Counted from the stretch's first letter, positions 15,999 through 32,000 are shown. The stretch is 32,000 nucleotides of DNA from Candidatus Saccharimonadota bacterium (GCF_025273655.1 NZ_CP045921.1:990001-1022000), one strand, 5' to 3'. The notes: generated by a model not told the origin, from the sequence alone. Numbers and translations are program-made.

Positions 15999-16807
15999 AG
16001 CTTCATGTCATCCACGATTACCTGCTTGTTCGACTCCATCTGTTTGATAATCGATGGCAGCTGCGCCTTGAGATCGTACTGATCACCAAGTGCACCGAGT
16101 AGATAGTGCTCAATAATCTGCGCCATGTTATGCTCAAATCCGTCTACCAGCATGTCTTGCTGCTTGGCGACGCTCTGCTGGAACGTTGCCGCCAGTTGCG
16201 TCTGCTGTTCTTGCAACGTCGCAAGACTCTTGTTCAACCATTCAAGCGTACTGTCCTGCGACTGCTTGAGCGCCTGCATCTGTGCCTTGCTGGCCTCGAA
16301 CTGCTCGGCGAGCTCGGCGTCCTGGCGCGCCACCGTCTTTTGCAGCGCATTGCCAAGGTTACGATGTTGTTCGGCCAGTTGCTCGGACGACTGGTTCATC
16401 GACTTCGTGGCTTCGGCTTGCGTTGCCTGGACAGCGTTTCGACTTTGCTCGAATTGCTCTTCGAGCGTCGCACTGAACGATTCGTGCTGTTTCTGGAGTG
16501 ACTCGACACTAGCATTGATCGACTCGAGTGCCGCAGCCTGCGCCACGCGGATAGACTTGGCATTGTCGGCAATTTGCTCGTCGATGCGCTTAGTGAGATA
16601 CGCCCGCAAATCCGCACTAATCTGCGACATACTCGCGTCCATGTCTTCTTGAAACTTAGCCGTCTGCTGCTGGATCAGTGCATCAAATTGGGCGCGACCT
16701 CGTTCGTTGAGCTCCTGGAAATAGCCGTCAAAATAGTGCCCGACACTTGTCGTCACTTCGTCGTCAGGGAGCTGCGAGCTCGGCTGCTTGTTCTGGAATA
16801 ATCCCAC
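15995..16807 (-). CDS. Gln/Glu/Ala-rich coiled-coil protein in the position of ATP synthase subunit b, with no TM helix
   Basis: The 270-aa protein is almost entirely heptad-like and helical (QQQTAKFQEDMDASMSQISADLRAYL...LATLQEQQTQLAATFQQSVAKQQ). No hydrophobic N-terminal segment is present. The GTG start is preceded by AAGGGTGGA. It is translationally coupled (ATGA) to atpH. Confidence 0.7.
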   Translation of the reverse strand: MGLFQNKQPSSQLPDDEVTTSVGHYFDGYFQELNERGRAQFDALIQQQTAKFQEDMDASMSQISADLRAYLTKRIDEQIADNAKSIRVAQAAALESINASVESLQKQHESFSATLEEQFEQSRNAVQATQAEATKSMNQSSEQLAEQHRNLGNALQKTVARQDAELAEQFEASKAQMQALKQSQDSTLEWLNKSLATLQEQQTQLAATFQQSVAKQQDMLVDGFEHNMAQIIEHYLLGALGDQYDLKAQLPSIIKQMESNKQVIVDDMKL

Positions 16808-16837
16808 GCGCGTCTAGTCCACCCTTTTTGGTTATGC

Positions 16838-17839
<1,002 letters not shown>

Positions 17840-17936
17840 CTACAATTACAGCAGCTTTTTGTGGCACCACACACGTATGAGCGAAAGAAACATTTTTATA
17901 TCAAAAAAACAGATATAGAAAGCCAAAATCAAATAG

Positions 17937-20111
17937 ATGTGGTGTCACCTCCCCACTGGTATTAGTCGACGTCGACTGCTGCAGTTCGTAGCAGTAGCAT
18001 CGCTTGCTATAGCGTTTTTCACAACGCTAGTATTTGCGCATGCGACGCAAGCCGCCGAGGGCGTCAATCAGACTCTCAGTTTTCAGGGGCGTCTGGCACA
18101 ATCTACCGGTGCACTCGTACCAGACGGCCACTACAACATTCAGTTCAAGATCTACCAGGACGGCGCGGGCACAAGCGCGGGCAATCCTGGCGGCAGCTTG
18201 AAATGGACCGAAACCTACATCAACAACAATGGCGACCAAGGTGTCGACGTCAAAAACGGCTACTTCTCTGTCACGCTCGGCTCGAAGAATCCGTTTGGCA
18301 ACCAAATCGACTGGAATCAAGACACGCTCTGGCTCTCAATGAACGTCGCCGGTAAAGATAATACCTGTACAACGTTTGGTAGCGGCAGCTGTACGGCAGA
18401 CGGCGAGATGCTACCCATGAAACGCATGACAGCAACACCATTCGCCATCAACTCTGCGCAGCTGGGTGGCAAAACAGCTGACAATTTCATTCAACTCGCA
18501 CAAGGAGTCCAAGAAGATGCAAGCAGTAACACTCCTAGCATCGCGATCAACAAGACAGGTAGCGGTAACTTCTTGCAACTGCAAAACAACGGAGTCAACG
18601 AGCTGAGTGTCACTGGCTCTGGCAATCTCGAATTTGGTAACGCCCAGGATCACGCAATTTATGTAGGTGGTGCTGGCGAAAACACAAATGGCAAGAATCT
18701 TACTCTATTCGCAGGCTGGGGTGGATGGGGTACATCGGGCGGCAACGGAGGTACACTGTTTCTACAGGGCGGCGGTGCGGGCGGCGACGGCAACTCTAAC
18801 GGAGGAGATGTTGTGATTACGGGTGGCTCCAAGACGGGCAATGGCTCGTCTGGAAGTATATTCCTCGGCGCAGATAGCACCAGCAATATCCAGGTGGGTA
18901 GTGCAAACCTCGGTAATGGCACACAGACTATCAATATCGGCAATAATTCTTCGGGTGGTACAACAAATATCACTATAGGTAGTGGCAGTGGTGCATCAGG
19001 TGGCTCGACAAAAATTCAATCAAAAGATACTGTCGCCGTATCTACCGATGGCGTAGACCGTGCAACATTCGATAGCAATGGCAATCTCTATCTAGGCAAT
19101 GGAGTCAGCAGTAGCAATCCGTCCGACTTCAAGATTCAAGGTACCGACAGTACAGCCAGCGGCGTGAGTGGCGGTGACCTAACAATACAAGGTGGTGGCG
19201 CCACAACCGGCAACACAAACGGTGGTAACCTGGTTCTGAACGGTGGAAGTGCAAATGGCACTGGCACAAACGGATCTGTTTCGATTGGTACTTCAAACAC
19301 GGGTGATGTCAACATTGGATCATCCTCAGGAGGCAAGGTTAATATCCAAAGTGGCACCGACGGAGTCACCGTTCAGTCCGGTGGCGTCGTAAGCGTCTCA
19401 TTCAACACTGCAAACGTTCAGGTTGGCGACGGTAGTGCATCAGGAGTACCTACTGTACTCACACTAGACAAAGCGTCTGCAGCACCAAATCTTGATCCTT
19501 CGATGGTGGGCAGTATGTATTACGATACGACCCTTGGCAAGGTGCAGTGCTACGAAGCCAATGGCTGGGGTGCTTGTGGTGCCGCGCCAGACACATTCGT
19601 ATCATTATCTCCAGAATATGCAGGCGCGATTGTCTCGGGTAGTGGTACGGGTACCATGTCGACAGATATCTGCTCAAACGACCTGGGCGTCAATACTTCT
19701 ATCTGTAATACCCACGAGACATATAATTTCTACAAATGGACCACAACGTCCTCCACATCACAGTTCAAAGTCATCTATGCCACATATCAACTACCAACTA
19801 ACTTCGATAAGTTCGTGGGCGGTTCAACTTCACTGATGGGTAAGACGGACAGCACCAACTCCCAGGTTTCTTACTACCTATACAGAGTTAAGGGTGATGG
19901 CAGTGGTACGGTTGCCTGCAACTCCACGGAATTCTTCGTATCTACTGGCGATCAGTCTACTTGGCAAAAGGGTGTTGGCACAGGCACGGCAGATCCCGCT
20001 AACTGTGGTTTTGTAGCCGGAGATCGCATCATGTTCAAGATCCCACTTGGCTCAAAGAGCAATGCAAATGCATACGCCAGCGACCTCAACTTTGCCTATA
20101 GCCTCAAGTAG
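17937..20111 (+). CDS. Large secreted Gly/Asn/Ser/Thr-rich beta-helix (tail-fibre/adhesin-like) surface protein
   Basis: After the ATG start, the signal peptide is RRRLLQFVAVASLAIAFFTTLVFAHATQA. The N-terminal module is LSFQGRLAQSTGALVPDGHYNIQFKIYQD...WTETY...VKNGYFSVTLG. The central part holds degenerate G-rich repeats (GGNGGTLFLQGGGAGGDGNSNGGDVVITGG...). The C-terminal module contains MYYDTTLGKVQCYEANGWGACG. Confidence 0.85.
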   Translation: MWCHLPTGISRRRLLQFVAVASLAIAFFTTLVFAHATQAAEGVNQTLSFQGRLAQSTGALVPDGHYNIQFKIYQDGAGTSAGNPGGSLKWTETYINNNGDQGVDVKNGYFSVTLGSKNPFGNQIDWNQDTLWLSMNVAGKDNTCTTFGSGSCTADGEMLPMKRMTATPFAINSAQLGGKTADNFIQLAQGVQEDASSNTPSIAINKTGSGNFLQLQNNGVNELSVTGSGNLEFGNAQDHAIYVGGAGENTNGKNLTLFAGWGGWGTSGGNGGTLFLQGGGAGGDGNSNGGDVVITGGSKTGNGSSGSIFLGADSTSNIQVGSANLGNGTQTINIGNNSSGGTTNITIGSGSGASGGSTKIQSKDTVAVSTDGVDRATFDSNGNLYLGNGVSSSNPSDFKIQGTDSTASGVSGGDLTIQGGGATTGNTNGGNLVLNGGSANGTGTNGSVSIGTSNTGDVNIGSSSGGKVNIQSGTDGVTVQSGGVVSVSFNTANVQVGDGSASGVPTVLTLDKASAAPNLDPSMVGSMYYDTTLGKVQCYEANGWGACGAAPDTFVSLSPEYAGAIVSGSGTGTMSTDICSNDLGVNTSICNTHETYNFYKWTTTSSTSQFKVIYATYQLPTNFDKFVGGSTSLMGKTDSTNSQVSYYLYRVKGDGSGTVACNSTEFFVSTGDQSTWQKGVGTGTADPANCGFVAGDRIMFKIPLGSKSNANAYASDLNFAYSLK

Positions 20112-21880: not shown

Positions 21881-22306
21881 TTATTTCTTCTTCGCAGAAA
21901 TAGCAATTTTCTTTGGTTCAGGAAGTGGTGTAAGCGGTACGCTAACCTTCAATACCCCATCATCGAGATGTGCTTCGATCTTCTCAGCATCTGCTCTCTT
22001 AGGAAGGGCTATACGGCGATAAAAGCTACTCGAACTCTCACGCACAACATACTGTTTGCCTTTGTCCTCTTCTTTTTCATGCCTTTCAGCACTAATGACT
22101 AAAGCGCCATTCTCAACTTCGATATTTATATCCTTTTGTTCGAAGTTTGGCAGATGTGCTTCAACAATAAGGTTATTGTCTTTTGTGAAGACATCTGTAG
22201 TAGGGATTGTCACACCCTTTAGTTGAGAAGCCCAATCATCACCAAAGAACTGCTTTTGTAGTGCAGTTAGCTCTGCAAACGGATCCCATCTTACGAGATT
22301 ACTCAT
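21881..22306 (-). CDS. hsp20: Hsp20/alpha-crystallin family small heat-shock protein
   Basis: The N-terminus is WDPFAELTALQKQF. The alpha-crystallin domain is PTTDVFTKDNNLIVEAHLPNFEQKDINIEVENGALVISAERHEKEE...FYRRIALPKRADAEKIEAHLDDGVLKVSVP. The SD AAAGGAGA precedes the ATG. Confidence 0.93.
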   Translation of the reverse strand: MSNLVRWDPFAELTALQKQFFGDDWASQLKGVTIPTTDVFTKDNNLIVEAHLPNFEQKDINIEVENGALVISAERHEKEEDKGKQYVVRESSSSFYRRIALPKRADAEKIEAHLDDGVLKVSVPLTPLPEPKKIAISAKKK

Positions 22307-22368: not shown

Positions 22369-22397
22369 AGTATAGAAAATTAGCACTCTCATGTCAA
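22369..22397 (-). promoter_or_regulatory. Sigma70-type promoter of hsp20
   Basis: The minus strand reads TTGACA (22397-22392), a 17-nt spacer, then TATACT (22374-22369). This is near-consensus in both sequence and spacing, and lies about 60 nt upstream of the hsp20 ATG. Confidence 0.75.
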
Positions 22398-22409: not shown

Positions 22410-23858
22410 TTAAACTAGGCGTATTTTACGCTCACGGCTGTCTTTACGAACCTTTGCCATTTTCTTGTCTTCACCAAACTTGAAATCATAGTTTCGGATG
22501 AACTTTGGGACTGATTCATCGTTATCTCGCATAGGTATGAATACTCTAAGTAAGGGGTTCATTTCCCCAGACAATACCGGTATGCTTGTTGGCTTAACGA
22601 TACCGCTCTTGAGTGTGATCTCAGCTGGTACACTGCCCAGCATCAACTTATCGAAATATACGAGTACTGATTCACGCATATCACGGTTATAGAACTCGTC
22701 TTTTGGCTTGGTTGTTGATACTGTTGGTTCTTTAGGCTCTGCTTTAGGAATGTAGCCGTTCTTCATACGTTGTTCGACCAGTTTTCGTATTTCTTCTTCA
22801 CTTTCGTAAGCCCGCAAGCTTCCTGACAAGAATCCGAGCCTGTAACTTACACCAGCACTCATTACTCGCCAGTTAGTATCCTCCAGAGCCTTCTCTATGG
22901 CTTTATGCAGGTCTTTCTTGCTTTGGTACTCTTCACGTTCGTCTTTGGTATCAAGGCAGCTGAAATCTAGTGATACTTCACGACCAATCTGTGGATCGCC
23001 AAGCTTAAAGTCGCTATAGCCCTCTTTAGTAAAGATTGGCTCGAGTAACTCCTTGAGTTGGACTATTTTGAGCTTCTTTACCTGTTTAATACCGTCATGC
23101 ACATCAACATGCTGTACTTTATCCTCGGCTGTGGCATGAAGTTTCGCCATTCTTTCAAAGTGTCTCAGCTTCTGGTCGTATTTGAAGATCATATCTTTAT
23201 CGAAAACGAAGCGTTTACGGTCGAGTTCTAGGTAAGGATCAACGGGTTCGGGCTCTTTCTTATCAGAGGATAGATCAAGTGTATCTGTTTTAACGTGCTT
23301 ACATTTCTCGCAGGTCTCAGTCCATGTAATAACATCGAACTCTTTGGTGGTCTTTGAGGTCGTATTACCACCGCATTTCTCACATTCATGCTTTGCACCT
23401 TCCCACTGCGTACCGTCTTCCCAAAGAGCCATACGCTTATTGCATTCTACGCATTCAAACATGATTAGGATGTCATCATCTTTGCGGCTATCACGGCGCA
23501 TATAGTCTTTGCTGATAACTCGCATGTCTTTACCGCAACTACGACAGTAAGTACCGCCTGAGATATGTGCTGAGGCTAAGCGGTTGTCTTTCTTCTCATC
23601 TTCCGCCACCCATTTTGCGATAGTAGCCTCCCGATTTTCAGCTCGTTCGGCTGCTGCCGATTCAACAAACCAAAAATAGTACAGGCTATACTGCAGATAC
23701 CAACCCGGCAACTTTTCAGTCAGCTCCTTTTTGGGGAGCTTCTTTTCCATGATCTTGAACGTATCATTTACGATTCGCTCACCGGAACGGCATTTGACTA
23801 CGGTACCGTCATCATAACGATCTTCGTAATACTTTTTGTCTTTTAGGTTCGTATACAT
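22410..23858 (-). CDS. Hypothetical protein with two CxxC...CxxC zinc-ribbon modules (cassette gene 4)
   Basis: The 482-aa protein has two cysteine quartets: C105-x2-C108...C136-x2-C139 and C159-x2-C162...C183-x2-C186 (YCRSCGKDM...ECVECNKRM; ECEKCGGN...TCEKCKHV). The remainder is charged, mixed alpha/beta sequence with no motif I recognise. Confidence 0.8.
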   Translation of the reverse strand: MYTNLKDKKYYEDRYDDGTVVKCRSGERIVNDTFKIMEKKLPKKELTEKLPGWYLQYSLYYFWFVESAAAERAENREATIAKWVAEDEKKDNRLASAHISGGTYCRSCGKDMRVISKDYMRRDSRKDDDILIMFECVECNKRMALWEDGTQWEGAKHECEKCGGNTTSKTTKEFDVITWTETCEKCKHVKTDTLDLSSDKKEPEPVDPYLELDRKRFVFDKDMIFKYDQKLRHFERMAKLHATAEDKVQHVDVHDGIKQVKKLKIVQLKELLEPIFTKEGYSDFKLGDPQIGREVSLDFSCLDTKDEREEYQSKKDLHKAIEKALEDTNWRVMSAGVSYRLGFLSGSLRAYESEEEIRKLVEQRMKNGYIPKAEPKEPTVSTTKPKDEFYNRDMRESVLVYFDKLMLGSVPAEITLKSGIVKPTSIPVLSGEMNPLLRVFIPMRDNDESVPKFIRNYDFKFGEDKKMAKVRKDSRERKIRLV

Positions 23859-23876
23859 CTGTACTAAACTCCAACT

Positions 23877-24743
23877 CTAGCAAGTATTGTTAGTTCTTTG
23901 AGCAAGCTCAATTTTCTTAAAGATTAGACCATTGTGACTATTTAACCCACCACTACATTCGAGCAAATGGATCATGTCTTCCGTGTGCTTGTTAGCATTA
24001 GTAATCATATCCTCTATAGCCTCATCACCAACTTGCTCCACTCCAAGTATCCACACCGTTTCTTTCACGTAGTTCTGCGGATATATCTTCAGAACATGGT
24101 AATACTTACTAGAAACTTTTAGATACATGTGAATTACTTCTGCTAAAAGATCTAGCATTTCTTTTGCTGGTCGGAGATCATGTTTAAATTTGCGAGACAA
24201 AGTGTGCGTTACATATGTCATACCCTCCTCAGCCCTTTGACCAGTAGTAACTTTATAGTACTTACCGTCTTTTGGTTGGTGGAATGCAAAAGCCTGATAC
24301 GGTTCGACACGCTTTAAATATAGGTTAGATATTTTTGATAAGTGGTCTTTGGCCAAAGGAAATAACGGCTCAATGACTTTTTTCTCATCTTCACTAACCT
24401 TGTGTTCGTACTTGTCGTAATAATACGACTCGTAGTCTTCTATGTTTAAATCTCTAACTGATTCCAAATATGCGTTTGCAAGAGCTGGCTCCTGCCTTGA
24501 AAATAGTAAACGAAGATGTAAGAACATTGAGTCAACGCAGGAAAAGTATATTTGGAAGAATACAGCACAGGTATTACAGTTCCTGCCTTTAATATGCCCA
24601 TGACCAGCCTTAGAATTAGCCCATACTTCAACTAACACATTCGCTACAATCAGTTTCTCGACACACTCTCGGTATACATCTAAAAGATAGCGGTGAGTCT
24701 TTTCATCTCCGAAGAATTTTTCATTTATTTCTTCGACTTTCAT
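23877..24743 (-). CDS. Hypothetical helical protein (cassette gene 3)
   Basis: The ATG at 24743 lies 1 nt after the stop of the 1186-aa gene (TAA-C-ATG). The track's TTG at 24758 would overlap by 14 nt. The 288-aa protein has no signal peptide or TM helix and no recognisable catalytic motif. Confidence 0.75.
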   Translation of the reverse strand: MKVEEINEKFFGDEKTHRYLLDVYRECVEKLIVANVLVEVWANSKAGHGHIKGRNCNTCAVFFQIYFSCVDSMFLHLRLLFSRQEPALANAYLESVRDLNIEDYESYYYDKYEHKVSEDEKKVIEPLFPLAKDHLSKISNLYLKRVEPYQAFAFHQPKDGKYYKVTTGQRAEEGMTYVTHTLSRKFKHDLRPAKEMLDLLAEVIHMYLKVSSKYYHVLKIYPQNYVKETVWILGVEQVGDEAIEDMITNANKHTEDMIHLLECSGGLNSHNGLIFKKIELAQRTNNTC

Positions 24744-24744
24744 G

Positions 24745-27700
24745 TTAGTTTTCGTCAATGTCCTTCGCGTAAAGTGATGGGTAGGATGCCTTAAGTTTAT
24801 CGAGAACTGTTTTTGCTTCGCCTGTTTTAATTTGTCTTAAGATATCGTAGTGCAATTGAGGCTTGAACATCGGTTGGTAGCCTTCAGGGTATGACAAGAT
24901 GATCCTTAGCATCTCTAGGTATTTCTCATCACCAGCAAGTTCTTTGGCGGTAATAAGGAAGTCATCATTATAATGGTGGCTCCACCATGATGACCTCTCA
25001 AGCGTTTTATAATTCTCACTAATCCATGCTTGTTCGTTACGCGTTATTTTCTCCCATAATCGTAAGCTTTGTTCGGGACGTTCTTTGATTCGATCGTTTA
25101 CGAAGTAGGCAGCTCTGTTAAATGCTTCTCTAGTGTATCGGTCTGCAATCTTGTCTAGGTACTCAAAGGATAGATCAATATCCTCTTCGTAGTTACTGCC
25201 TTTCTTGGGGAGCGTCCAGAAGAACCATCCTATATGAGTCCTCGCCTCGTCGTTATCACTTTCAATTATCATGTTTAGCAGATCTTTAAATGGTTGATCG
25301 TCAAAGTTGTTAACTTTCTGGTACATATCTTCGCCAAAAAGCTTCTTAAAAGATTCATCAGTGAAAAAGTTTTTTCTAAAAAGAGCAAAAGAAATTAAAA
25401 GCGTGTATATATCATCCGTCTTCGCCTTATTGTCAATTAGCCCATATTGTTTGAAAACATGCATTGCCTGTTCTGTGGTCATGGTTCTAAAGCGGTGCAA
25501 GACTGCTTCTAAGTGGTGAAGTATGACCTTGTTATCGTATTTGTCGACTAATTCAAGTGATAGATTCTCGATATGATCGGAAAGCTCACGGGGTATGAAT
25601 CTCTTATCAGTTTTTGGCAGTACCGAGTGTCTGTTCTGCATTAGCGATGTCAATGGAATCATTCCTTGAGTAACAACGTATAGATTCTCGTCTTTGACTA
25701 GCTTCTCGGTCATTTGTGCAACTTCTTCTAGATGATCCTTACCTCGCATCGAAATTAGCGACGACAGGATCCATGCCACCCAACCCCGTACAGTTGTTAT
25801 GATTCTTGGATCCTCTTCACCGTTAAGAATCTTGAGATGATAGTTAGACTGGCCTTTTGGATCGTCAGGATCATTCTCAAGCTTGGGGTGCGAATCATTG
25901 ATAAATATACGTGCAATCTCTAGCGCTTCGTTAACAAATCCTTGCTTTGCTAAATGTTCACCAAACTGAACTGCAAGCTGTCGAGGGTAGTGCTCTGTGA
26001 GTCGTGCCTCAATACGGGAATTGTCGCCGCCCAACTCATCGTAGAGAACTGGTCGTACGAAATCCTGATATAACTTACCTATGAGCGCTTTGTTATCCTT
26101 GTCAACTTGTTCAATGCTTAGCCAGATTGCTGTTTGCTGGTTGCTGGTCAAAACATCCGATTTATTGATATCACGAAGTATCTTTAGCCCCGAATCATAA
26201 TCTCGCTCGATAACCTGTGCGATGGTTCGGCTAATATCGTACGAGTCAAACGAACCAAGTTCATGAGTGAATTCCTTGGTCTTAAGATAACTATTCAATA
26301 CTTCCACGCCTGTTTCAAATAGCTTAGTCGTCGGATCAGATGAAAGTAGTTGTATCATAATGCGGCCCACGTAGAAGCTGTGCCATACTTGTCGTTTACG
26401 GTATTCGGGGTTGTCCATCCATGAAACGATTGCTGAAAGTGCACGTTCATCGCCATCAAGAGCGAGCGAGGAGACGATCTGCTCAACAAACACGCTATAT
26501 GGTAGGGTGTATTTTTTTAGGAAAATATTTATTAATGACCATTTTTTATCATTAGATAAATCAGGATTTTTATCTCGTAGCATTTGAAAAATAAGTTCGT
26601 GCTTTGATGGAATTCCCTTTCGGGCAATGACTTGATTCTTCAGTATTTTTAACGCATCATCACTATGTTCACCGTCACTATACTCTTGCAGAACTATATG
26701 TAATGCAGCTCGATTCAAAAAATCAGGTCTATCTACTGATACATTTGAATCTTTTGAAATAAATCTTTCATTAACTAATTTCCAGGCCGATGTCTTATCG
26801 AAAGCATAATGTTCTTTCAAGGCGGGCTCGAGGACATGTTGAATATAGTGTCTGTCATTTAAGGTGAATTGATCCCCAGATTGGCTGACGCCCCCGCCCA
26901 TACCATCCCAACCATTATATGATCCACCGTAAATCTTAGCGTTTTGATACTGACCGACAATTATGTCGATTACTTCTTCAATCCTGTTGATGAAGTCGGC
27001 TGCGAGATACTTATATAAAATATTAAAAATCGGAGATGGGGTATATATATCATATTCACCGTCATCATCGATGAGATTAAAGTAAAGTGACACTAGCTCA
27101 ATAGATCTACCAATATATTCCTGATTTTTGGTTGCTTGGAAGTAATCAAATGTAAGCACTAGTAGCTTTGCTATTTCTACTTTTTCTTGTCGATCACTCC
27201 TATCATCAAGCTCGGTGTAGTCCACTCGTTTGTCCTTAAGGAATGCGTCGATGAAGTCATAAACCTGAGGCGAAAGATCAGAGTGCTCCTTTAGAATCAT
27301 TTCCATTGTTTGCATAGCGAACTCTGCCCGAAAATCATCGAATGCCGGATTAGTAAAAGCATCCGTATGACTAGCGAAGAGCCCTATTGTGTAGGCTGCA
27401 TTTTCTCGATCCTTTATATGATCTTTAAAATCGTAAACTACGCGGAACGAGTATTGTCGATCTATGATTTTTGACCATACGATATCCCAGTCAGCAAGCT
27501 TCAGTCCCTTCTGGCTAAATATCTCCTGGATAACAAAGTACATAAGGTCAGGCTGAATAGTCCACGCGCTAATATTTCGCTTAATTTGGTTCTCATCGTG
27601 GTTTTTTATATGTGTCAGAATACTTTTAAATTGTTGCGGGATGTCCGTCTGTCGTCTGTCGTATTCGACATTTTTATCTAGCTCGTTATCGTAGTAGTTA

Positions 27701-28305
27701 TCAACGTCATCACTTAATTGCTGTCTAGTGAACTTCTCGCCCTTGGTTGCTTTCCTGAAAAAGCTACTCATAACAATTGAATCAAGCCATCTCTCGACAT
27801 CTGCACGTGGGAGCCACGCACCAGCCAGCTTAGGGTGGTTATAGAAATACGCTAATGACTCCTCGTATAAGAACTCTGCCGATTCGGGCTTAAAGAATGA
27901 GACTCTAGGCAGTAATTCAATTTCTTTTGCAGAGTAACCTTTTTGTGTGAACCAAGCTTCATGATCCGTGTACCAGCGCAGGTGCTTTATCCGCTCTTCC
28001 AGATCGTTACTTACGGATGGACAAACAATAAGTATTTCATCTTTTTCACTAAGATCATCTGGGCTCTCGGTAATGTTTTTCAATATTTTAAGTAAATTAC
28101 TTGTCGTGAAGGCACGTGCATAGTACTTCGATTCACATACTATCTTTTTACCGTCTACGTAAACGAGAGTAAAGTCTTCCCAATTTTTATCCTCAAGGAT
28201 AATTGAATCAAAAGAAGCCTCTCGTGATCGCATAAGAAATAGTAAAACCGCAGACCACGTCTGGTAATCGAGCCCTTTGAAATTATTCATGCCCGCAGTA
28301 CTCAT
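24745..28305 (-). CDS. Giant (1186 aa) protein: N-terminal Cap4/DUF4297-like PD-(D/E)xK nuclease head plus about 1100 aa of helical repeats (cassette gene 2)
   Basis: The N-terminus FKGLDYQTWSAVLLFLMRS...IILEDKNWEDFTLVYVDGKKIVCESKYY fits the DUF4297 pattern (G.xYQ helix, acidic E/D cluster, then ExK/QxK). The remainder is helix-rich. I found no GxxxxGK[ST] Walker A motif. The start ATGA overlaps the upstream gene. Confidence 0.8.
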   Translation of the reverse strand: MSTAGMNNFKGLDYQTWSAVLLFLMRSREASFDSIILEDKNWEDFTLVYVDGKKIVCESKYYARAFTTSNLLKILKNITESPDDLSEKDEILIVCPSVSNDLEERIKHLRWYTDHEAWFTQKGYSAKEIELLPRVSFFKPESAEFLYEESLAYFYNHPKLAGAWLPRADVERWLDSIVMSSFFRKATKGEKFTRQQLSDDVDNYYDNELDKNVEYDRRQTDIPQQFKSILTHIKNHDENQIKRNISAWTIQPDLMYFVIQEIFSQKGLKLADWDIVWSKIIDRQYSFRVVYDFKDHIKDRENAAYTIGLFASHTDAFTNPAFDDFRAEFAMQTMEMILKEHSDLSPQVYDFIDAFLKDKRVDYTELDDRSDRQEKVEIAKLLVLTFDYFQATKNQEYIGRSIELVSLYFNLIDDDGEYDIYTPSPIFNILYKYLAADFINRIEEVIDIIVGQYQNAKIYGGSYNGWDGMGGGVSQSGDQFTLNDRHYIQHVLEPALKEHYAFDKTSAWKLVNERFISKDSNVSVDRPDFLNRAALHIVLQEYSDGEHSDDALKILKNQVIARKGIPSKHELIFQMLRDKNPDLSNDKKWSLINIFLKKYTLPYSVFVEQIVSSLALDGDERALSAIVSWMDNPEYRKRQVWHSFYVGRIMIQLLSSDPTTKLFETGVEVLNSYLKTKEFTHELGSFDSYDISRTIAQVIERDYDSGLKILRDINKSDVLTSNQQTAIWLSIEQVDKDNKALIGKLYQDFVRPVLYDELGGDNSRIEARLTEHYPRQLAVQFGEHLAKQGFVNEALEIARIFINDSHPKLENDPDDPKGQSNYHLKILNGEEDPRIITTVRGWVAWILSSLISMRGKDHLEEVAQMTEKLVKDENLYVVTQGMIPLTSLMQNRHSVLPKTDKRFIPRELSDHIENLSLELVDKYDNKVILHHLEAVLHRFRTMTTEQAMHVFKQYGLIDNKAKTDDIYTLLISFALFRKNFFTDESFKKLFGEDMYQKVNNFDDQPFKDLLNMIIESDNDEARTHIGWFFWTLPKKGSNYEEDIDLSFEYLDKIADRYTREAFNRAAYFVNDRIKERPEQSLRLWEKITRNEQAWISENYKTLERSSWWSHHYNDDFLITAKELAGDEKYLEMLRIILSYPEGYQPMFKPQLHYDILRQIKTGEAKTVLDKLKASYPSLYAKDIDEN

Positions 28306-29195
28306 GACACCTCACCACCCTCAGTTTGGGTTGTTTCAGCAGGGATGGCTACACCCTCGTACACATTCATTAATTGCTCAATATCATTACATGCAAGTTC
28401 GAGACTACCTCCTGAACCAGGAGATATACCTTCAGTTTGAAGCTTGTATCTTGCGTAATAGTTGATCATTGCACTACGAAATTCATCGATTAGACTTTCT
28501 TGGGTTCCAGCTTTTGACTGAATAATGCTTAGTAGTTCATGGATTAGCATATCTTCGGGAAATGCAATTGGATTAGGAAAGCTTATTGGCAGATTCCTAG
28601 CGACCCGTCGTACCTTTTCCCGTACGTTATCCTTTATGTCACTATCTGGGTCTCCTGCGATAACAGTAAGTGGTGAACCTTCTTCAAAAACTATAGCCCT
28701 AATAGATGTATGGAGATCGTCATCGCTGTCGTAACAGTCACTTGAAAGCTTGTCTTTAAAATACTGCAGCGCACTCTGGGCATCTTCGGTCGATAGCGTA
28801 GTGTAATGATGAAGTCTTTGTGCGTGGTCTCTGAAATTTCTGACAGCAACTGCCCTATCTTTGCTAATAATGACAGTACTTTTGTCATTAATGCTAAGCA
28901 CTGAATTCTTTCTAAGCTTTGCATAATCTGCGACCGTTTCGAATACTAGGCCTGTCTTCTCTTTAAAGTATTGACCAGTCTTGACTTCATAAACCTCTTG
29001 CGTCGGTACTCCAGAATTATCGATGAGTTCTACTAAAAGATCGTAGGATTTCTTGTTAGTTGAGTCGTACTCAAAATCAACAAAGAACTTTTCCATTTTT
29101 CTTTTTGCCTCATAGTTACTCAAGAAAACGAGAATGGCATAGAGGTCTTGGTAATAAAAGCCTATCCGAGTGCTACGTATCGCAGTGCTAGGCAT
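28302..29195 (-). CDS. 297-aa protein with Cap4/DUF4297-like PD-(D/E)xK nuclease head (cassette gene 1)
   Basis: The N-terminus is TRIGFYYQDLYAILVFLSNY...FFVDFEYDS...YDLLVELID...QEVYEVKTGQ. It shows the same G.xYQ ... acidic ... E-x-K arrangement as the first 65 aa of the 1186-aa protein. It starts 9 nt after the hsdR stop. Confidence 0.75.
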   Translation of the reverse strand: MPSTAIRSTRIGFYYQDLYAILVFLSNYEAKRKMEKFFVDFEYDSTNKKSYDLLVELIDNSGVPTQEVYEVKTGQYFKEKTGLVFETVADYAKLRKNSVLSINDKSTVIISKDRAVAVRNFRDHAQRLHHYTTLSTEDAQSALQYFKDKLSSDCYDSDDDLHTSIRAIVFEEGSPLTVIAGDPDSDIKDNVREKVRRVARNLPISFPNPIAFPEDMLIHELLSIIQSKAGTQESLIDEFRSAMINYYARYKLQTEGISPGSGGSLELACNDIEQLMNVYEGVAIPAETTQTEGGEVS

Positions 29196-29204
29196 AATTT
29201 TAGC

Positions 29205-32000
29205 CTACTCTCCCAATCTGCCGTTCGAAATGTCGAAGAACTTATTGAAGAACGATGCTAATTTATCTAACACTGTTTCTCGCTTCTTGCCACGACTTTG
29301 GTCTGGGCTGAAACGAGAGACAGGGGGCATGATTTTTGTGATAGCAGTACCGCTCGTTTGTACACCGCCGTCACGGAATGCCCTTTCAATAAACTTGTAG
29401 GTTTCTTCACGGTCAAGATTTTCCTCAGAGATAATTCGATCAAGCTCTTCTATCTTCTTGGAATTCACGAATGACTGCCAGTCGTCATCAACGGATGAGT
29501 CAACATTAATACTGCTGATGAATTGTTCGATAAGTTCCTTCTTGTTCCGAAGCTCGATGCTTGAATCAATAGCTTTGTTAATATCAACAAGCAGTTCCTT
29601 ATCCTCTTGGTTACTTGCATGATATTTGCGGATGAGTTCAAGGATGTAATCAATATTTATCTCGACTTGTTTGATGAGCTCCATTTCAAATACGATGTCA
29701 TCGTTGATATTTTCTTTGTCACTCTCATTAACTTTGCGGAACTCATCGTAAAAGTTAATGTACATGCTGTGGTAATCCTGCACATCACGCTCAGATAGGA
29801 TCTCGTTACCCGTAAAGTCATCGAATGTAGAGAGAATGTTGCGCACCTTTAGGATTGCACCATAGAGTTTAATGAAATCCTTTTTATTCTGCTCACCGAT
29901 TATAGGCTGGCCAACTGGGAATCGTTCAATCAACTCATTAACAAGCTCGGCATATCCGCGCACCTGCTTACCTTCTGCTTCATAACCGTCGTAATACTCA
30001 CGGAATGACTTGAGTAGTACGATTCCGCTAGCTTCTTTATCACCAAAGAGCGACAGAGAATCATTGGTGGCCTTCTCTAGGTTACGGAAAGTAACAATGT
30101 TGCCAAATGTCTTAATTGAATTTAGAATTCGGTTGGTTCGTGAATAGGCCTGGAGTAGCCCATGCATTCGCAAGTTCTTGTCTATCCAGAGTGTATTTAA
30201 AGTTGTGGCATCAAAGCCTGTCAGGAACATGTTCACTACAATGAGCAGATCAATCTCGCGGTTCTTCATACGCAAACTGACATCTTTGTAGTAATTCTGG
30301 AACTTATCGGATGATGTATCGTAGTTTGTACCGAACATTTGGTTGTAATCTTTTATCGCAGCTTCGAGGAAGTCGCGTGAGTTTTTGTCTAGACCATCTG
30401 TATTGTCGGAGTTTTCGTCCTCGAGCCCATCCATTTCATCATCGACTTCATTAGCACCGTAACTGAATATCGTGGCTATCTTTAATTTCTTTAACTCTGG
30501 TACATCTGCTTGTTGCTTGTTGAACTCTGTATAGTACAGCTTTGCAACATCGATAGAGCTGACGGCAAATATGGAGTTAAACCCGCTTAGTCGAATCTTT
30601 TGCTTGATTTCTTCAACGGCCGAACGGTCTTTTGCCGATGCGGCTTCATGGACGCTTGCTAAAGCGGTGAATGCGTACGGCTTACTGTTGCGCTTAGTCT
30701 TTTGATCAAAGTGATCACGAATATATTGTGTGACATTTGAGATGCGTTCCGGCGCAGCCAAGGCTTTTTCGCGGTCAATGTCACGTACCTGTGAGTCATC
30801 GACATCGTCAGCCTCTTTTATGGTTCGGATGTAGTCAATGCGAAAAGGCAGTACGTTTTTGTCAGTGATAGCATCGACTATCGTGTACGTATGTAGCTTT
30901 TCGCCAAAGGCCTGTTCGGTCGTTTTTAGATCAACACGACCACCACTAGAAGAGTTTTTAGCGAAGATAGGGGTACCCGTAAAACCAAAGAGGTGGTAGT
31001 TTTTGAAGCTGGTTGTGACTGCGTGGTGCATATCTCCGAACTGTGATCGGTGACACTCATCAAAGATGATTATGACGTGACCATCAAATACTTTGTGTCC
31101 TTCGTTCTTCTTTATGAACTTATCTAGTTTTTGAATGGTTGTGATTATGATTCTAGCATTGTCGTTTTCAAGTTGTTTGGTAAGTTTGGCAGTGCTCGTA
31201 TTGCTATTAGCCGCGCCTTTCTCAAACTTGTCATACTCCTTCATGGTTTGATAGTCGAGGTCTTTACGGTCGACAACGAATAGTACTTTATCTACGGATG
31301 ATAATTTACTGGCAAGTTGAGCTGTCTTGAAGCTAGTCAACGTTTTGCCCGATCCAGTGGTATGCCAAATGTATCCGCCAGCTTCGATGGTGCCTAGTTT
31401 TTTATAGTTCGTTGAAACTTCAACCCGATTCAATATTCGCTCAGTTGCAACGATCTGGTAGGGTCGCATTGCAAGCAGTAATCGGTCGCTGGTAAACACG
31501 CAGTATTTTGTTAGGACGTTTAAGATCGCATGTTTAGCAAAGAACGTCTGACCAAAGTCCATAAGATCAAAAATAGGCTTGTTATTTGCATCTGCCCACC
31601 AGCTCGTAAACTCAAAACTGTTGCTGGTTTTCTTTGTTCGTTTAGCACGAGTCTCACTAGCCTCTTTGATGTGCTGGAACCGTGTAGTGTTGCTGTAGTA
31701 TTTTGTGTACGTTCCGTTGCTGATAACAAATAGCTGTACATATTCGTATAGTCCACTATCCGCCCAGAAGCTATCACGCTGATAACGGTTAATCTGATTG
31801 AAGGCTTCTTGCAGAGCCACACCTCGACGCTTCAGCTCAACATGCACGAGTGGCAAGCCATTTACGAGAATCGTGACATCATAGCGGTTAGCCCGTGCAC
31901 CGTCCACTTCGTATTGGTTAATTACTTGGAGGCTATTATTGTGAATGTTTTTCTTATCTATAAGATATATATTGCGCTTGAATTGACCGTGTTCGTCGTA
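29205..32000 (-). CDS. hsdR: Type I restriction enzyme R subunit (helicase-nuclease), N-terminus beyond the window
   Basis: The nuclease region is DVTILVNGLPLVHVELKRRG. SF2 helicase motifs are HTTGSGKTLTSF (motif I), IIFDECHRSQ (motif II, DEAH-like) and FGFTGTP (motif III), with QAYSRTNR also present. The C-terminal module resembles the EcoR124-type HsdR C-terminus. The reading frame stays open to base 32000 (...YDEHGQFKRNIYLIDKKNIHNNSLQVINQYEVDGARANRYD), so the GTG at 31907 in the track is internal. Confidence 0.93.
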   Translation of the reverse strand, partial: YDEHGQFKRNIYLIDKKNIHNNSLQVINQYEVDGARANRYDVTILVNGLPLVHVELKRRGVALQEAFNQINRYQRDSFWADSGLYEYVQLFVISNGTYTKYYSNTTRFQHIKEASETRAKRTKKTSNSFEFTSWWADANNKPIFDLMDFGQTFFAKHAILNVLTKYCVFTSDRLLLAMRPYQIVATERILNRVEVSTNYKKLGTIEAGGYIWHTTGSGKTLTSFKTAQLASKLSSVDKVLFVVDRKDLDYQTMKEYDKFEKGAANSNTSTAKLTKQLENDNARIIITTIQKLDKFIKKNEGHKVFDGHVIIIFDECHRSQFGDMHHAVTTSFKNYHLFGFTGTPIFAKNSSSGGRVDLKTTEQAFGEKLHTYTIVDAITDKNVLPFRIDYIRTIKEADDVDDSQVRDIDREKALAAPERISNVTQYIRDHFDQKTKRNSKPYAFTALASVHEAASAKDRSAVEEIKQKIRLSGFNSIFAVSSIDVAKLYYTEFNKQQADVPELKKLKIATIFSYGANEVDDEMDGLEDENSDNTDGLDKNSRDFLEAAIKDYNQMFGTNYDTSSDKFQNYYKDVSLRMKNREIDLLIVVNMFLTGFDATTLNTLWIDKNLRMHGLLQAYSRTNRILNSIKTFGNIVTFRNLEKATNDSLSLFGDKEASGIVLLKSFREYYDGYEAEGKQVRGYAELVNELIERFPVGQPIIGEQNKKDFIKLYGAILKVRNILSTFDDFTGNEILSERDVQDYHSMYINFYDEFRKVNESDKENINDDIVFEMELIKQVEINIDYILELIRKYHASNQEDKELLVDINKAIDSSIELRNKKELIEQFISSINVDSSVDDDWQSFVNSKKIEELDRIISEENLDREETYKFIERAFRDGGVQTSGTAITKIMPPVSRFSPDQSRGKKRETVLDKLASFFNKFFDISNGRLGE

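Follow-up and report, generated by a model that had tools for sequence, protein, structure and literature searches.

A candidate two-gene system of a nuclease and a HEAT solenoid, and a separate gene pair, behind a type I restriction gene of Candidatus Mycosynbacter amalyticus

The window analyzed here is a 32,000-nucleotide (nt) stretch of the 1.08-Mb genome of Candidatus Mycosynbacter amalyticus (Saccharibacteria), and our subject is a run of five co-directional open reading frames (ORFs) on its minus strand. The first is hsdR, the restriction subunit of a type I restriction-modification (R-M) system, and it is followed by four genes that we call gA, gB, gC, and gD (Table 1). Read directly from the sequence, the TAG of hsdR is followed by 9 nt and the ATG of gA, gA and gB share an ATGA overlap, gB ends in TAA followed by a single C and the ATG of gC, and the TAG of gC is followed by 18 nt and the ATG of gD. 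An earlier note, made from the sequence of this stretch, had listed the same four ORFs of 297, 1186, 288, and 482 amino acids (aa) behind hsdR with identical junctions. It had also described the block as compositionally foreign and lacking transmembrane helices, and both descriptions held up: the GC fraction of the five genes is 0.38 to 0.44 compared to 0.513 for positions 1 to 21000 of the window, and no transmembrane helix was predicted in gA to gD, as every 19-residue hydrophobic window scored below 1.6. A motif scan of the four proteins found no Walker A motif, and scans of the window for tRNA and Rfam families gave no match. In GenBank, the products of gA, gB, and gC are all annotated as hypothetical proteins.

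Table 1. Positions of the genes, protein domains, and regulatory elements, numbered from the first base of the window
Feature	Position	Strand	Remarks
hsdR, type I restriction subunit	29205..31907	-	partial; ORF runs past the window edge, with ~140 N-terminal aa outside
gA, 297 aa, Cap4/DUF4297/LmuA-like PD-(D/E)xK nuclease	28302..29195	-	GenBank QHN43290
gB, whole, 1186 aa	24745..28305	-	GenBank QHN43289
gB N-terminal domain, residues 1-208, predicted PD-(D/E)xK fold	27682..28305	-	motif conservation and AF2 topology
gB body, residues ~221-1186, predicted HEAT/ARM-type alpha-solenoid	24745..27645 (stop codon included)	-	AF2, Foldseek
gC, 288 aa from ATG (293 aa from an upstream TTG)	23877..24743	-	GenBank QHN43288; unknown family
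gD, 482 aa, double zinc ribbon	22410..23858	-	ribbons at residues 105-186 = 23301-23546
CIRCE operator, TTAGCACTC-N9-GAGTGCTAA	22380..22406	-	perfect match, read from the sequence
Promoter-like TTGACA-17-TATACT	22397..22369	-	score 11/12
Hsp20 gene	21881-22306	-	NCBIfam Hsp18/Hsp14 matches, 1e-20

The product of gA has the marks of a small nuclease. Its residues 3 to 226, of 297, matched the PADLOC LmuA profile PDLC03848 (E = 4.4e-5, 22 bits), and a match to Pfam Cap4_nuclease (E = 0.14) fell under the gathering score. In the family alignment, the motif RxGxxYQ ... D ... ExKTG is invariant, and the motif residues in gA are Y15, Q16, D40, D52, and E70-V-K72. Searched against PDB profiles, the gA/Cap4 profile was weakly co-linear with the Cap4 structure 6vm6 (E = 0.2). 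About 70 residues follow the nuclease domain.

The much larger gB protein opens with a nuclease-like domain of its own. Across 63 members of the gB family, down to 20% identity, residues E38, D44, F45, and E58 do not vary, and conservation of Q15 and K60 is at least 90%; the conserved residues of the head comprise G5, G11, Q15, E38, D44, and E58-x-K60. An AlphaFold2 (AF2) model built on 18 homologues gave this region the order alpha-beta-beta-beta-alpha-beta (helices at residues 14 to 26 and 68 to 79, and strands at 32 to 37, 45 to 49, 54 to 59, and 90 to 94). D44, E58, and K60, together with this predicted order, supply the core of the PD-(D/E)xK superfamily. With three of these residues (E38, D44, and E58) invariant and two more (Q15 and K60) almost so, the head of gB is very probably an active PD-(D/E)xK nuclease. 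The earlier note had placed Cap4-like heads on two proteins of the block. This was supported for gA by its LmuA match, while for gB the PD-(D/E)xK fold stood and the Cap4 label did not stand as firmly.

Behind the head, the AF2 model (mean predicted local distance difference test score, 84.7) has a low-confidence or disordered linker at residues 209 to 220 and is all-helical from there on, so that the remaining ~970 residues form a predicted HEAT/ARM solenoid. Foldseek searches of the PDB returned CAND1, importin-beta, karyopherins, and SF3B1 (E from ~1e-7 to 1e-5; TM-scores, 0.2 to 0.3). Weak Pfam matches to HEAT, HEAT_2, or Cnd1 were seen in 5 of 18 gB members, and none of the 18 carried a nucleoside triphosphatase (NTPase) domain from Pfam. 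Head-less forms of gB (~950 to 1020 aa) begin at profile position ~220, which coincides with the modeled linker and thus marks the boundary between head and solenoid. The picture in the earlier note, a PD-(D/E)xK head running into long helical repeats without a P-loop, therefore agrees with the motif, the model, the Foldseek matches, and the missing Walker A. gB itself had no match in Pfam, PADLOC v2.0.0, NCBIfam, or PHROGs, no meaningful match in PDB profile searches with alignments of 18 and 63 sequences, and no match in plasmids by tblastn or in IMG/VR. Two family members, P0292 and P0308, have an additional XRE-type HTH_3 domain in front of the nuclease head (Pfam, 1e-12 to 1e-14). The GenBank version of gB (QHN43289) is 1181 aa long, as opposed to 1186 aa for the ORF with the ATGA overlap to gA.

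Relatives of gB were collected in several ways. A first k-mer-based search gave 18 gB clusters, a contig scan with the single gB protein gave one locus, and a metagenome scan, seeded by peptide patterns from the N-terminal nuclease domain, gave 39 more loci (loci carry L numbers below). Neighbors in most of these 39 loci were assigned by BLAST and by iterated hidden Markov models built from a few references. An exhaustive HMMER search with the gB profile reached 496 representatives at 50% identity (E <= 1e-3). Members with an organism name come from Saccharibacteria and Parcubacteria only, and nearly all others lie on metagenome contigs.

What these loci conserve is a gene directly in front of gB. 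A same-strand ORF ends -8 to +4 nt from the gB start in 40 of 45 loci, over a range of gB identity from 98% to 23%, and in 25 of these loci the overlap is exactly 4 nt. The coupled ORF is 83 to 374 aa long, or about 190 to 375 aa where no contig end cuts it, and the gene downstream of gB varies among the 45 loci. At 60% gB identity (L005), the order is a MmeI-type methyltransferase (MTase), genes of 294 and 361 aa, gB, and a gene of 430 aa. At 48% (L011), a 356-aa gene and gB stand alone within a type IV secretion system (T4SS) element. Two loci at 33 to 36% (L001 and L006) have a PLD-SNF2 helicase, an Eco57I-type MTase, a small gene, and gB, and a parcubacterial locus at 30% (L003) has a Bsp6I R-M system, Vsr, a KAP NTPase, a Cap4_nuclease protein, and gB.

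While its position is kept, the identity of the partner is not. The gB partners fall into at least seven sequence families that are mutually unrelated at E <= 1e-3. One is the gA-like LmuA/Cap4 family (PADLOC LmuA, 1.4e-7) and another is a second Cap4_nuclease family (Pfam, 4e-10). Seven members belong to the Schlafen AlbA_2 family (Pfam, 1.8e-22). The long members of a further family carry an N-terminal HNH domain, a CBASS-type effector that also matches PDC-M68A (1e-25), one family is Mrr_cat-like (4e-4), and two are of unknown type. In some proteins the two halves are fused: a gA-like N terminus replaces gB's own head in P0295 (phmmer, 1.4e-15 to gA), and an L033-type partner is joined to the solenoid in P0276 and P0286. 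A Pfam search of these three alternative N termini gave no match. When the partner families were compared by hhalign for a common gB-docking domain, a weak C-terminal match between families F2 and F4 emerged (probability, 53%; E = 1.4e-4), and it carries no weight here.

A coupling that is conserved, effectors that are swapped, and Rosetta-stone fusions typically mark a two-component defense module. We regard it as highly likely that gA and gB work as a functional pair, with a coupling that appears translational and has an obligatory look. All four genes of the block are hypothetical and belong to no curated family, so unrelated neighbors brought together by chance, forming no functional system, also had to be considered. 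This idea is barely credible, given that the partner-gB order and its 4-nt overlap persist from 98% down to 23% gB identity, that fusions exist, and that the catalytic residues are invariant.

The pair is probably a defense system. It could instead be a selfish maintenance or competition module of a mobile element, acting by toxin-antitoxin-like addiction or by exclusion of rivals. Its location is always a mobile or variable region (T4SS elements, terminase and ParB-MTase flanks, serine recombinases), and two overlap-coupled genes with a nuclease resemble a toxin-antitoxin layout. However, known antitoxins do not resemble a conserved 1186-residue partner that has an invariant catalytic site of its own, and swapping among Cap4, Schlafen, HNH, and Mrr is a pattern of defense systems such as Lamassu, CBASS, and Avs. 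We consider a selfish module very improbable, and in practice it overlaps with defense.

The neighborhood upstream of the pair raises another alternative, a guard of the adjacent R-M system or MTase. PrrC is located inside a type Ic R-M locus, and gA-gB might likewise stay latent while the R-M system is intact and fire once a phage anti-restriction protein disables it. In approximately 13 of the 32 loci with enough upstream sequence, the same strand carries an R-M MTase or type I gene (hsdR, hsdS, or a large Eco57I/MmeI-type MTase) that adjoins the pair or nearly does so, often with a PLD-SNF2 helicase, and the gap between hsdR and gA in the window is only 9 nt. On the other hand, many loci have no detectable R-M neighbor, including L011 in its T4SS element, L007, L003 (next to the KAP NTPase), L026 to L028, L033, and L038 to L041. 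The R-M types are also heterogeneous (type I, MmeI-like, and MTase with PLD-SNF2), and this heterogeneity speaks against a specific protein-protein guard interface. We think a PrrC-like guard unlikely, plausible though it is as a variant of the mechanism proposed below. As a separate observation, a PLD-SNF2 helicase (~1060 to 1140 aa) and an Eco57I/MmeI-type MTase (~1120 to 1190 aa) recur immediately in front of partner-gB in three distant lineages (L001:2843-9385, L006:2102-9075, and L036:39-5949), and these two genes look like an R-M-like or DISARM/Hma-like module. Hma is a different, Snf2-nuclease system (PMC11232893).

The remaining two genes have a distribution of their own. gC homologues form 20 clusters (54 to 85% identity) and had no match in Pfam, PADLOC, NCBIfam, PHROGs, or PDB. 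The earlier note had taken gC for a helical protein with no recognizable motif, but 17 homologues share H48, H50, C56, C59, C263, and H270 without exception. For gD, the two zinc ribbons noted earlier were found as four CxxC motifs at residues 105, 136, 159, and 183, and all eight of their cysteines are invariant in 32 homologues. Across Pfam, PADLOC v2.0.0, NCBIfam, and PHROGs, the matches of gD were to zinc ribbons only, and PADLOC returned none for gB, gC, or gD. Its AF2 model (pLDDT, 81.9) had no Foldseek match in PDB or BFVD at E <= 0.001, PDB profile searches gave no meaningful match, and tblastn against phages gave none. The gD family comprises more than 180 clusters at 43 to 92% identity (55 to 92% among full-length members). 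The exact 482-aa gD was found in Logan assemblies only and had no NCBI protein accession; it may be annotated otherwise, or as a pseudogene, at NCBI. In one clustering, gC and gD were placed in a single 90% cluster, which looks like an artifact.

In every context seen, gC lies before gD. Both follow operons of the form type ISP-PIF1-(AAA_13-DUF2130)-DUF2779 that contain neither gA nor gB (L016 and L017). gD is also found without gA, gB, and gC: in a T4SS element of L012 it follows a XamI R-M pair, in L014 it stands between QatABCD and Shedu, and in L061 it is an orphan. Short gD-like forms end the operon of an SMC/Rad50-like ATPase gene (L059) and operons that combine an MTase and a UvrD/GajB-like helicase with a 502-aa gene (L058 and L060). 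More generally, many defense-type operons that are unrelated to one another, in several lineages, have a gD homologue at their 3' end or close to it, often with overlaps of 1 to 5 nt. In a relative with a 98%-identical gB (L010:14448-15895), gD is broken up into ORFs of 180, 142, and 118 aa and the other three genes are intact, which suggests that the rest of the operon can do without gD.

These contexts bear on whether gA, gB, gC, and gD form one four-component defense system, which is how the earlier note had read them. For such a system speak the tight junctions, the order gA-gB-gC-gD retained in relatives that are 93% identical in DNA, and a gD-like gene behind gB in the distant loci L001, L037, and L038 (29 to 34% identity). 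Against it, no gC homologue was found in gB loci below ~86% gB identity, gC-gD occur behind operons free of gA and gB, gD stands beside other systems or by itself, the gD family has its more than 180 clusters against 18 for gB by the same search method, and the split gD of L010 leaves three intact genes. The related loci conserve the partner-gB pair only, so the single cassette was not sustained, and we hold a four-component system to be improbable. As a candidate for a specific fourth subunit, gD was rejected on account of its contexts.

Because gC-gD follow operons without gA and gB, we place them apart from gA-gB as what appears to be a separate 3'-terminal pair of defense hot spots, and the tight junctions in the window are then operon packing. 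From these comparisons, gD is a widespread gene associated with defense hot spots and not specific to gA-gB; it could be a common accessory, a regulator, or an independent gene. Taken together, we favor, with some reserve, the reading that two independent units share one operon behind a type I R-M system in a low-GC mobile island. gA-gB would be a candidate unnamed two-gene system against phages or other mobile genetic elements (MGEs), and gC-gD would be separate.

Several points weigh against this reading. The Cap4-like label for the gB head, drawn from motifs, topology, and low profile scores, is weakly supported: Pfam Cap4_nuclease matched 1 of 18 members (E = 0.004), and hhalign of the head against the gA family gave E = 9e-4 with a probability of 23%. 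HEAT solenoids are generic scaffolds, and at TM-scores of 0.2 to 0.3 the Foldseek matches teach nothing about the ligand. The gD-like gene follows gB in four lineages (the window type, L001, L037, and L038), so some functional tie between gD and gB is possible. Through its seeding on the nuclease head, the metagenome scan sampled only forms that have this head, with their contexts. Finally, ~60% of loci, with limited detection, are without an adjacent R-M gene, so the R-M link is not obligatory.

We propose a mechanism for gA-gB under the favored reading. The gB solenoid would be a ligand-binding sensor or scaffold that holds gA and gB's own nuclease head inactive. A trigger from a phage or MGE would bind the solenoid; it might be a phage protein, as for the HEAT domain of DSR2, or a signal that the neighboring R-M system is inhibited. 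Binding would release or activate both nucleases, and since there is no NTPase, activation would be allosteric or by oligomerization. The activated nucleases could degrade invader DNA, host DNA, or both, and with a Schlafen-like partner the target could be RNA. We infer the sensor role of the solenoid from its likeness to the DSR2 HEAT domain, and we likewise infer the activation step and the nucleic acid target.

A broader version of this proposal is more tentative, and we would give it somewhat less than even weight. Partner-gB might be a new and fairly widespread family of anti-phage systems without an NTPase (~500 clusters at 50% identity) in which a giant HEAT solenoid senses a phage component directly and frees a built-in nuclease and an exchangeable one (Cap4, Schlafen, HNH, or Mrr). 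In the same version, gD might be a promiscuous accessory at the 3' end of unrelated defense operons across phyla, for example, a common regulator or a counter-counter-defense factor.

The setting of the block fits the defense island that the earlier note had supposed, and the contexts of related loci show such defense and mobile-element islands. Upstream, the ORF at 29205-31907 matched Pfam HSDR_N, ResIII, SWI2_SNF2, T1R_D3-like, and EcoR124_C (E = 1e-25 to 1e-69) and PADLOC REase_I (1068 bits). Judged by these domains, it is a genuine type I HsdR, as the earlier note had called it, and it is the upstream gene of the same operon, outside the new module. hsdM and hsdS of this genome lie beyond the window edge, so the type I feature is seen in the close relatives: hsdM, hsdS, and hsdR (1041 aa) precede gA in those 93% identical in DNA, and L008, L009, and L010 (gB, 98%) have hsdM-hsdS-hsdR-gA-gB-gC-gD with terminase and ParB-methylase genes on the upstream side. 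A serine recombinase lies on the other side of the block in L008 and L010. Neighbors across the gB loci include type I genes, MmeI/Eco57I-type MTases, PLD-SNF2, the Bsp6I R-M system, KAP NTPase, NYN, Fic, and MazE genes, T4SS elements, and terminase-bearing elements.

Other observations concern the borders of the block. A gene for a ParB_N-N6_N4 methyltransferase flanks it in close and distant relatives (L008:1-3178 and 16545-18116; L005:3374-4705; L016:1-969), and a large terminase gene also flanks it in the close relatives L008 to L010, with a serine recombinase in some. Such flanks indicate a prophage-like or integrative element, and the arrangement points to a cargo hot spot in it, between the ParB-MTase gene and gC-gD. 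In close relatives, a 187-aa gene that is absent from the window follows gD (L008:15906-16469); in L008 its product has weak HEAT/Cnd1 matches and a PADLOC match to HEAT-ARM_XIII (E = 0.009). In the window, a perfect CIRCE starts 3 nt past the gD stop codon, just upstream of the Hsp20 gene, with the -35 hexamer in the spacer (loop) of the CIRCE and the -10 hexamer immediately downstream of the repeat. At this operator the low-GC operon ends and the Hsp20 promoter starts. From this placement of operator and promoter, the Hsp20 gene is probably under HrcA/CIRCE control, and the CIRCE hairpin may also terminate the hsdR-to-gD operon.

If the proposal is correct, gA-gB would add a defense family whose sensor logic is unlike that of STAND or SMC systems, with a nuclease head on an NTPase-free HEAT solenoid and a plug-in second nuclease. 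Effector swapping would link Cap4, Schlafen, HNH, and Mrr nucleases to one scaffold, making partner-gB a natural system in which to study the control of different effectors by a repeat sensor. The named members are from the CPR (candidate phyla radiation, also called Patescibacteria), ultra-small episymbionts that have a poorly charted immune repertoire and are just beginning to be tractable. Splitting gC-gD from the cassette flags gD as a recurrent companion of many defense operons.

We compared the pair with named defense systems. The earlier note could match the genes to none, and Pfam, PADLOC v2.0.0 (2023), NCBIfam, and PHROGs likewise leave gB, gC, and gD unassigned to any system. In the literature on DUF4297/Cap4 with HEAT, on CPR defense systems, and on Mycosynbacter, we found no description of the gA-gB pair. 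Among CBASS and HerA systems, the likeness is the Cap4/DUF4297-type PD-(D/E)xK head with its GxxYQ ... D ... ExK motif. CBASS Cap4 differs in that the 297-aa gA has no SAVED domain, and HerA-DUF4297 differs in that the cassette has no HerA ATPase. Pfam and PADLOC gave no match to SAVED, CD-NTase, or HerA in gA to gD, there was no P-loop protein in the cassette, and none of the three was found within ~10 kb in the seven distinct related loci annotated with Pfam, 39 others being without such annotation. An Avs/STAND assignment for gB was rejected, as it has no Walker A, no NTPase domain in its 18 members, and an AF2 head that runs straight into the solenoid.

PrrC and RloC resemble gA-gB as latent nucleases in or beside a type I R-M operon, as gA starts 9 nt past hsdR. 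However, PrrC combines an ABC-ATPase head with an anticodon nuclease and has no sequence or domain relation to gA-gB, whose R-M linkage is frequent and not obligatory. Prokaryotic Schlafens are met among the gB partners in the seven AlbA_2 members, whereas the partner in the window, gA, is Cap4-like. Recent work describes Schlafen nucleases as antiviral effectors fused to diverse domains (PMC13056530), and it makes no mention of HEAT, Cap4, or operon partners.

The closest likenesses in architecture are to Lamassu and DSR2. Lamassu is also a small operon with a variable effector, including LmuA of the Cap4/DUF4297 type, beside a large conserved partner, and gA and its relatives match PADLOC LmuA at 4.4e-5 to 1.4e-7. 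However, LmuB is an SMC/Rad50-like ATPase, whereas gB has no Walker A, no LmuB match, and a predicted HEAT solenoid. gB as a form of LmuB was rejected for want of an ATPase. The DSR2 HEAT domain binds the phage tail tube protein, which switches on the effector (PMC11263360). Like DSR2, gB is by prediction a single large protein with an N-terminal effector, a long C-terminal HEAT region, and no NTPase. In contrast to DSR2, the gB head is a PD-(D/E)xK nuclease and not a Sir2 NADase (SIR2 had no Pfam or PADLOC match in the four proteins), gB almost always comes with a translationally coupled second nuclease gene, and no sequence similarity was found, PADLOC giving no gB match at E < 1. By architecture, the pair appears most like DSR2 or Lamassu and a member of neither. 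By this analogy, gA-gB would be new as a pair and of a kind already known, the modular defense system of an effector plus a repeat sensor.

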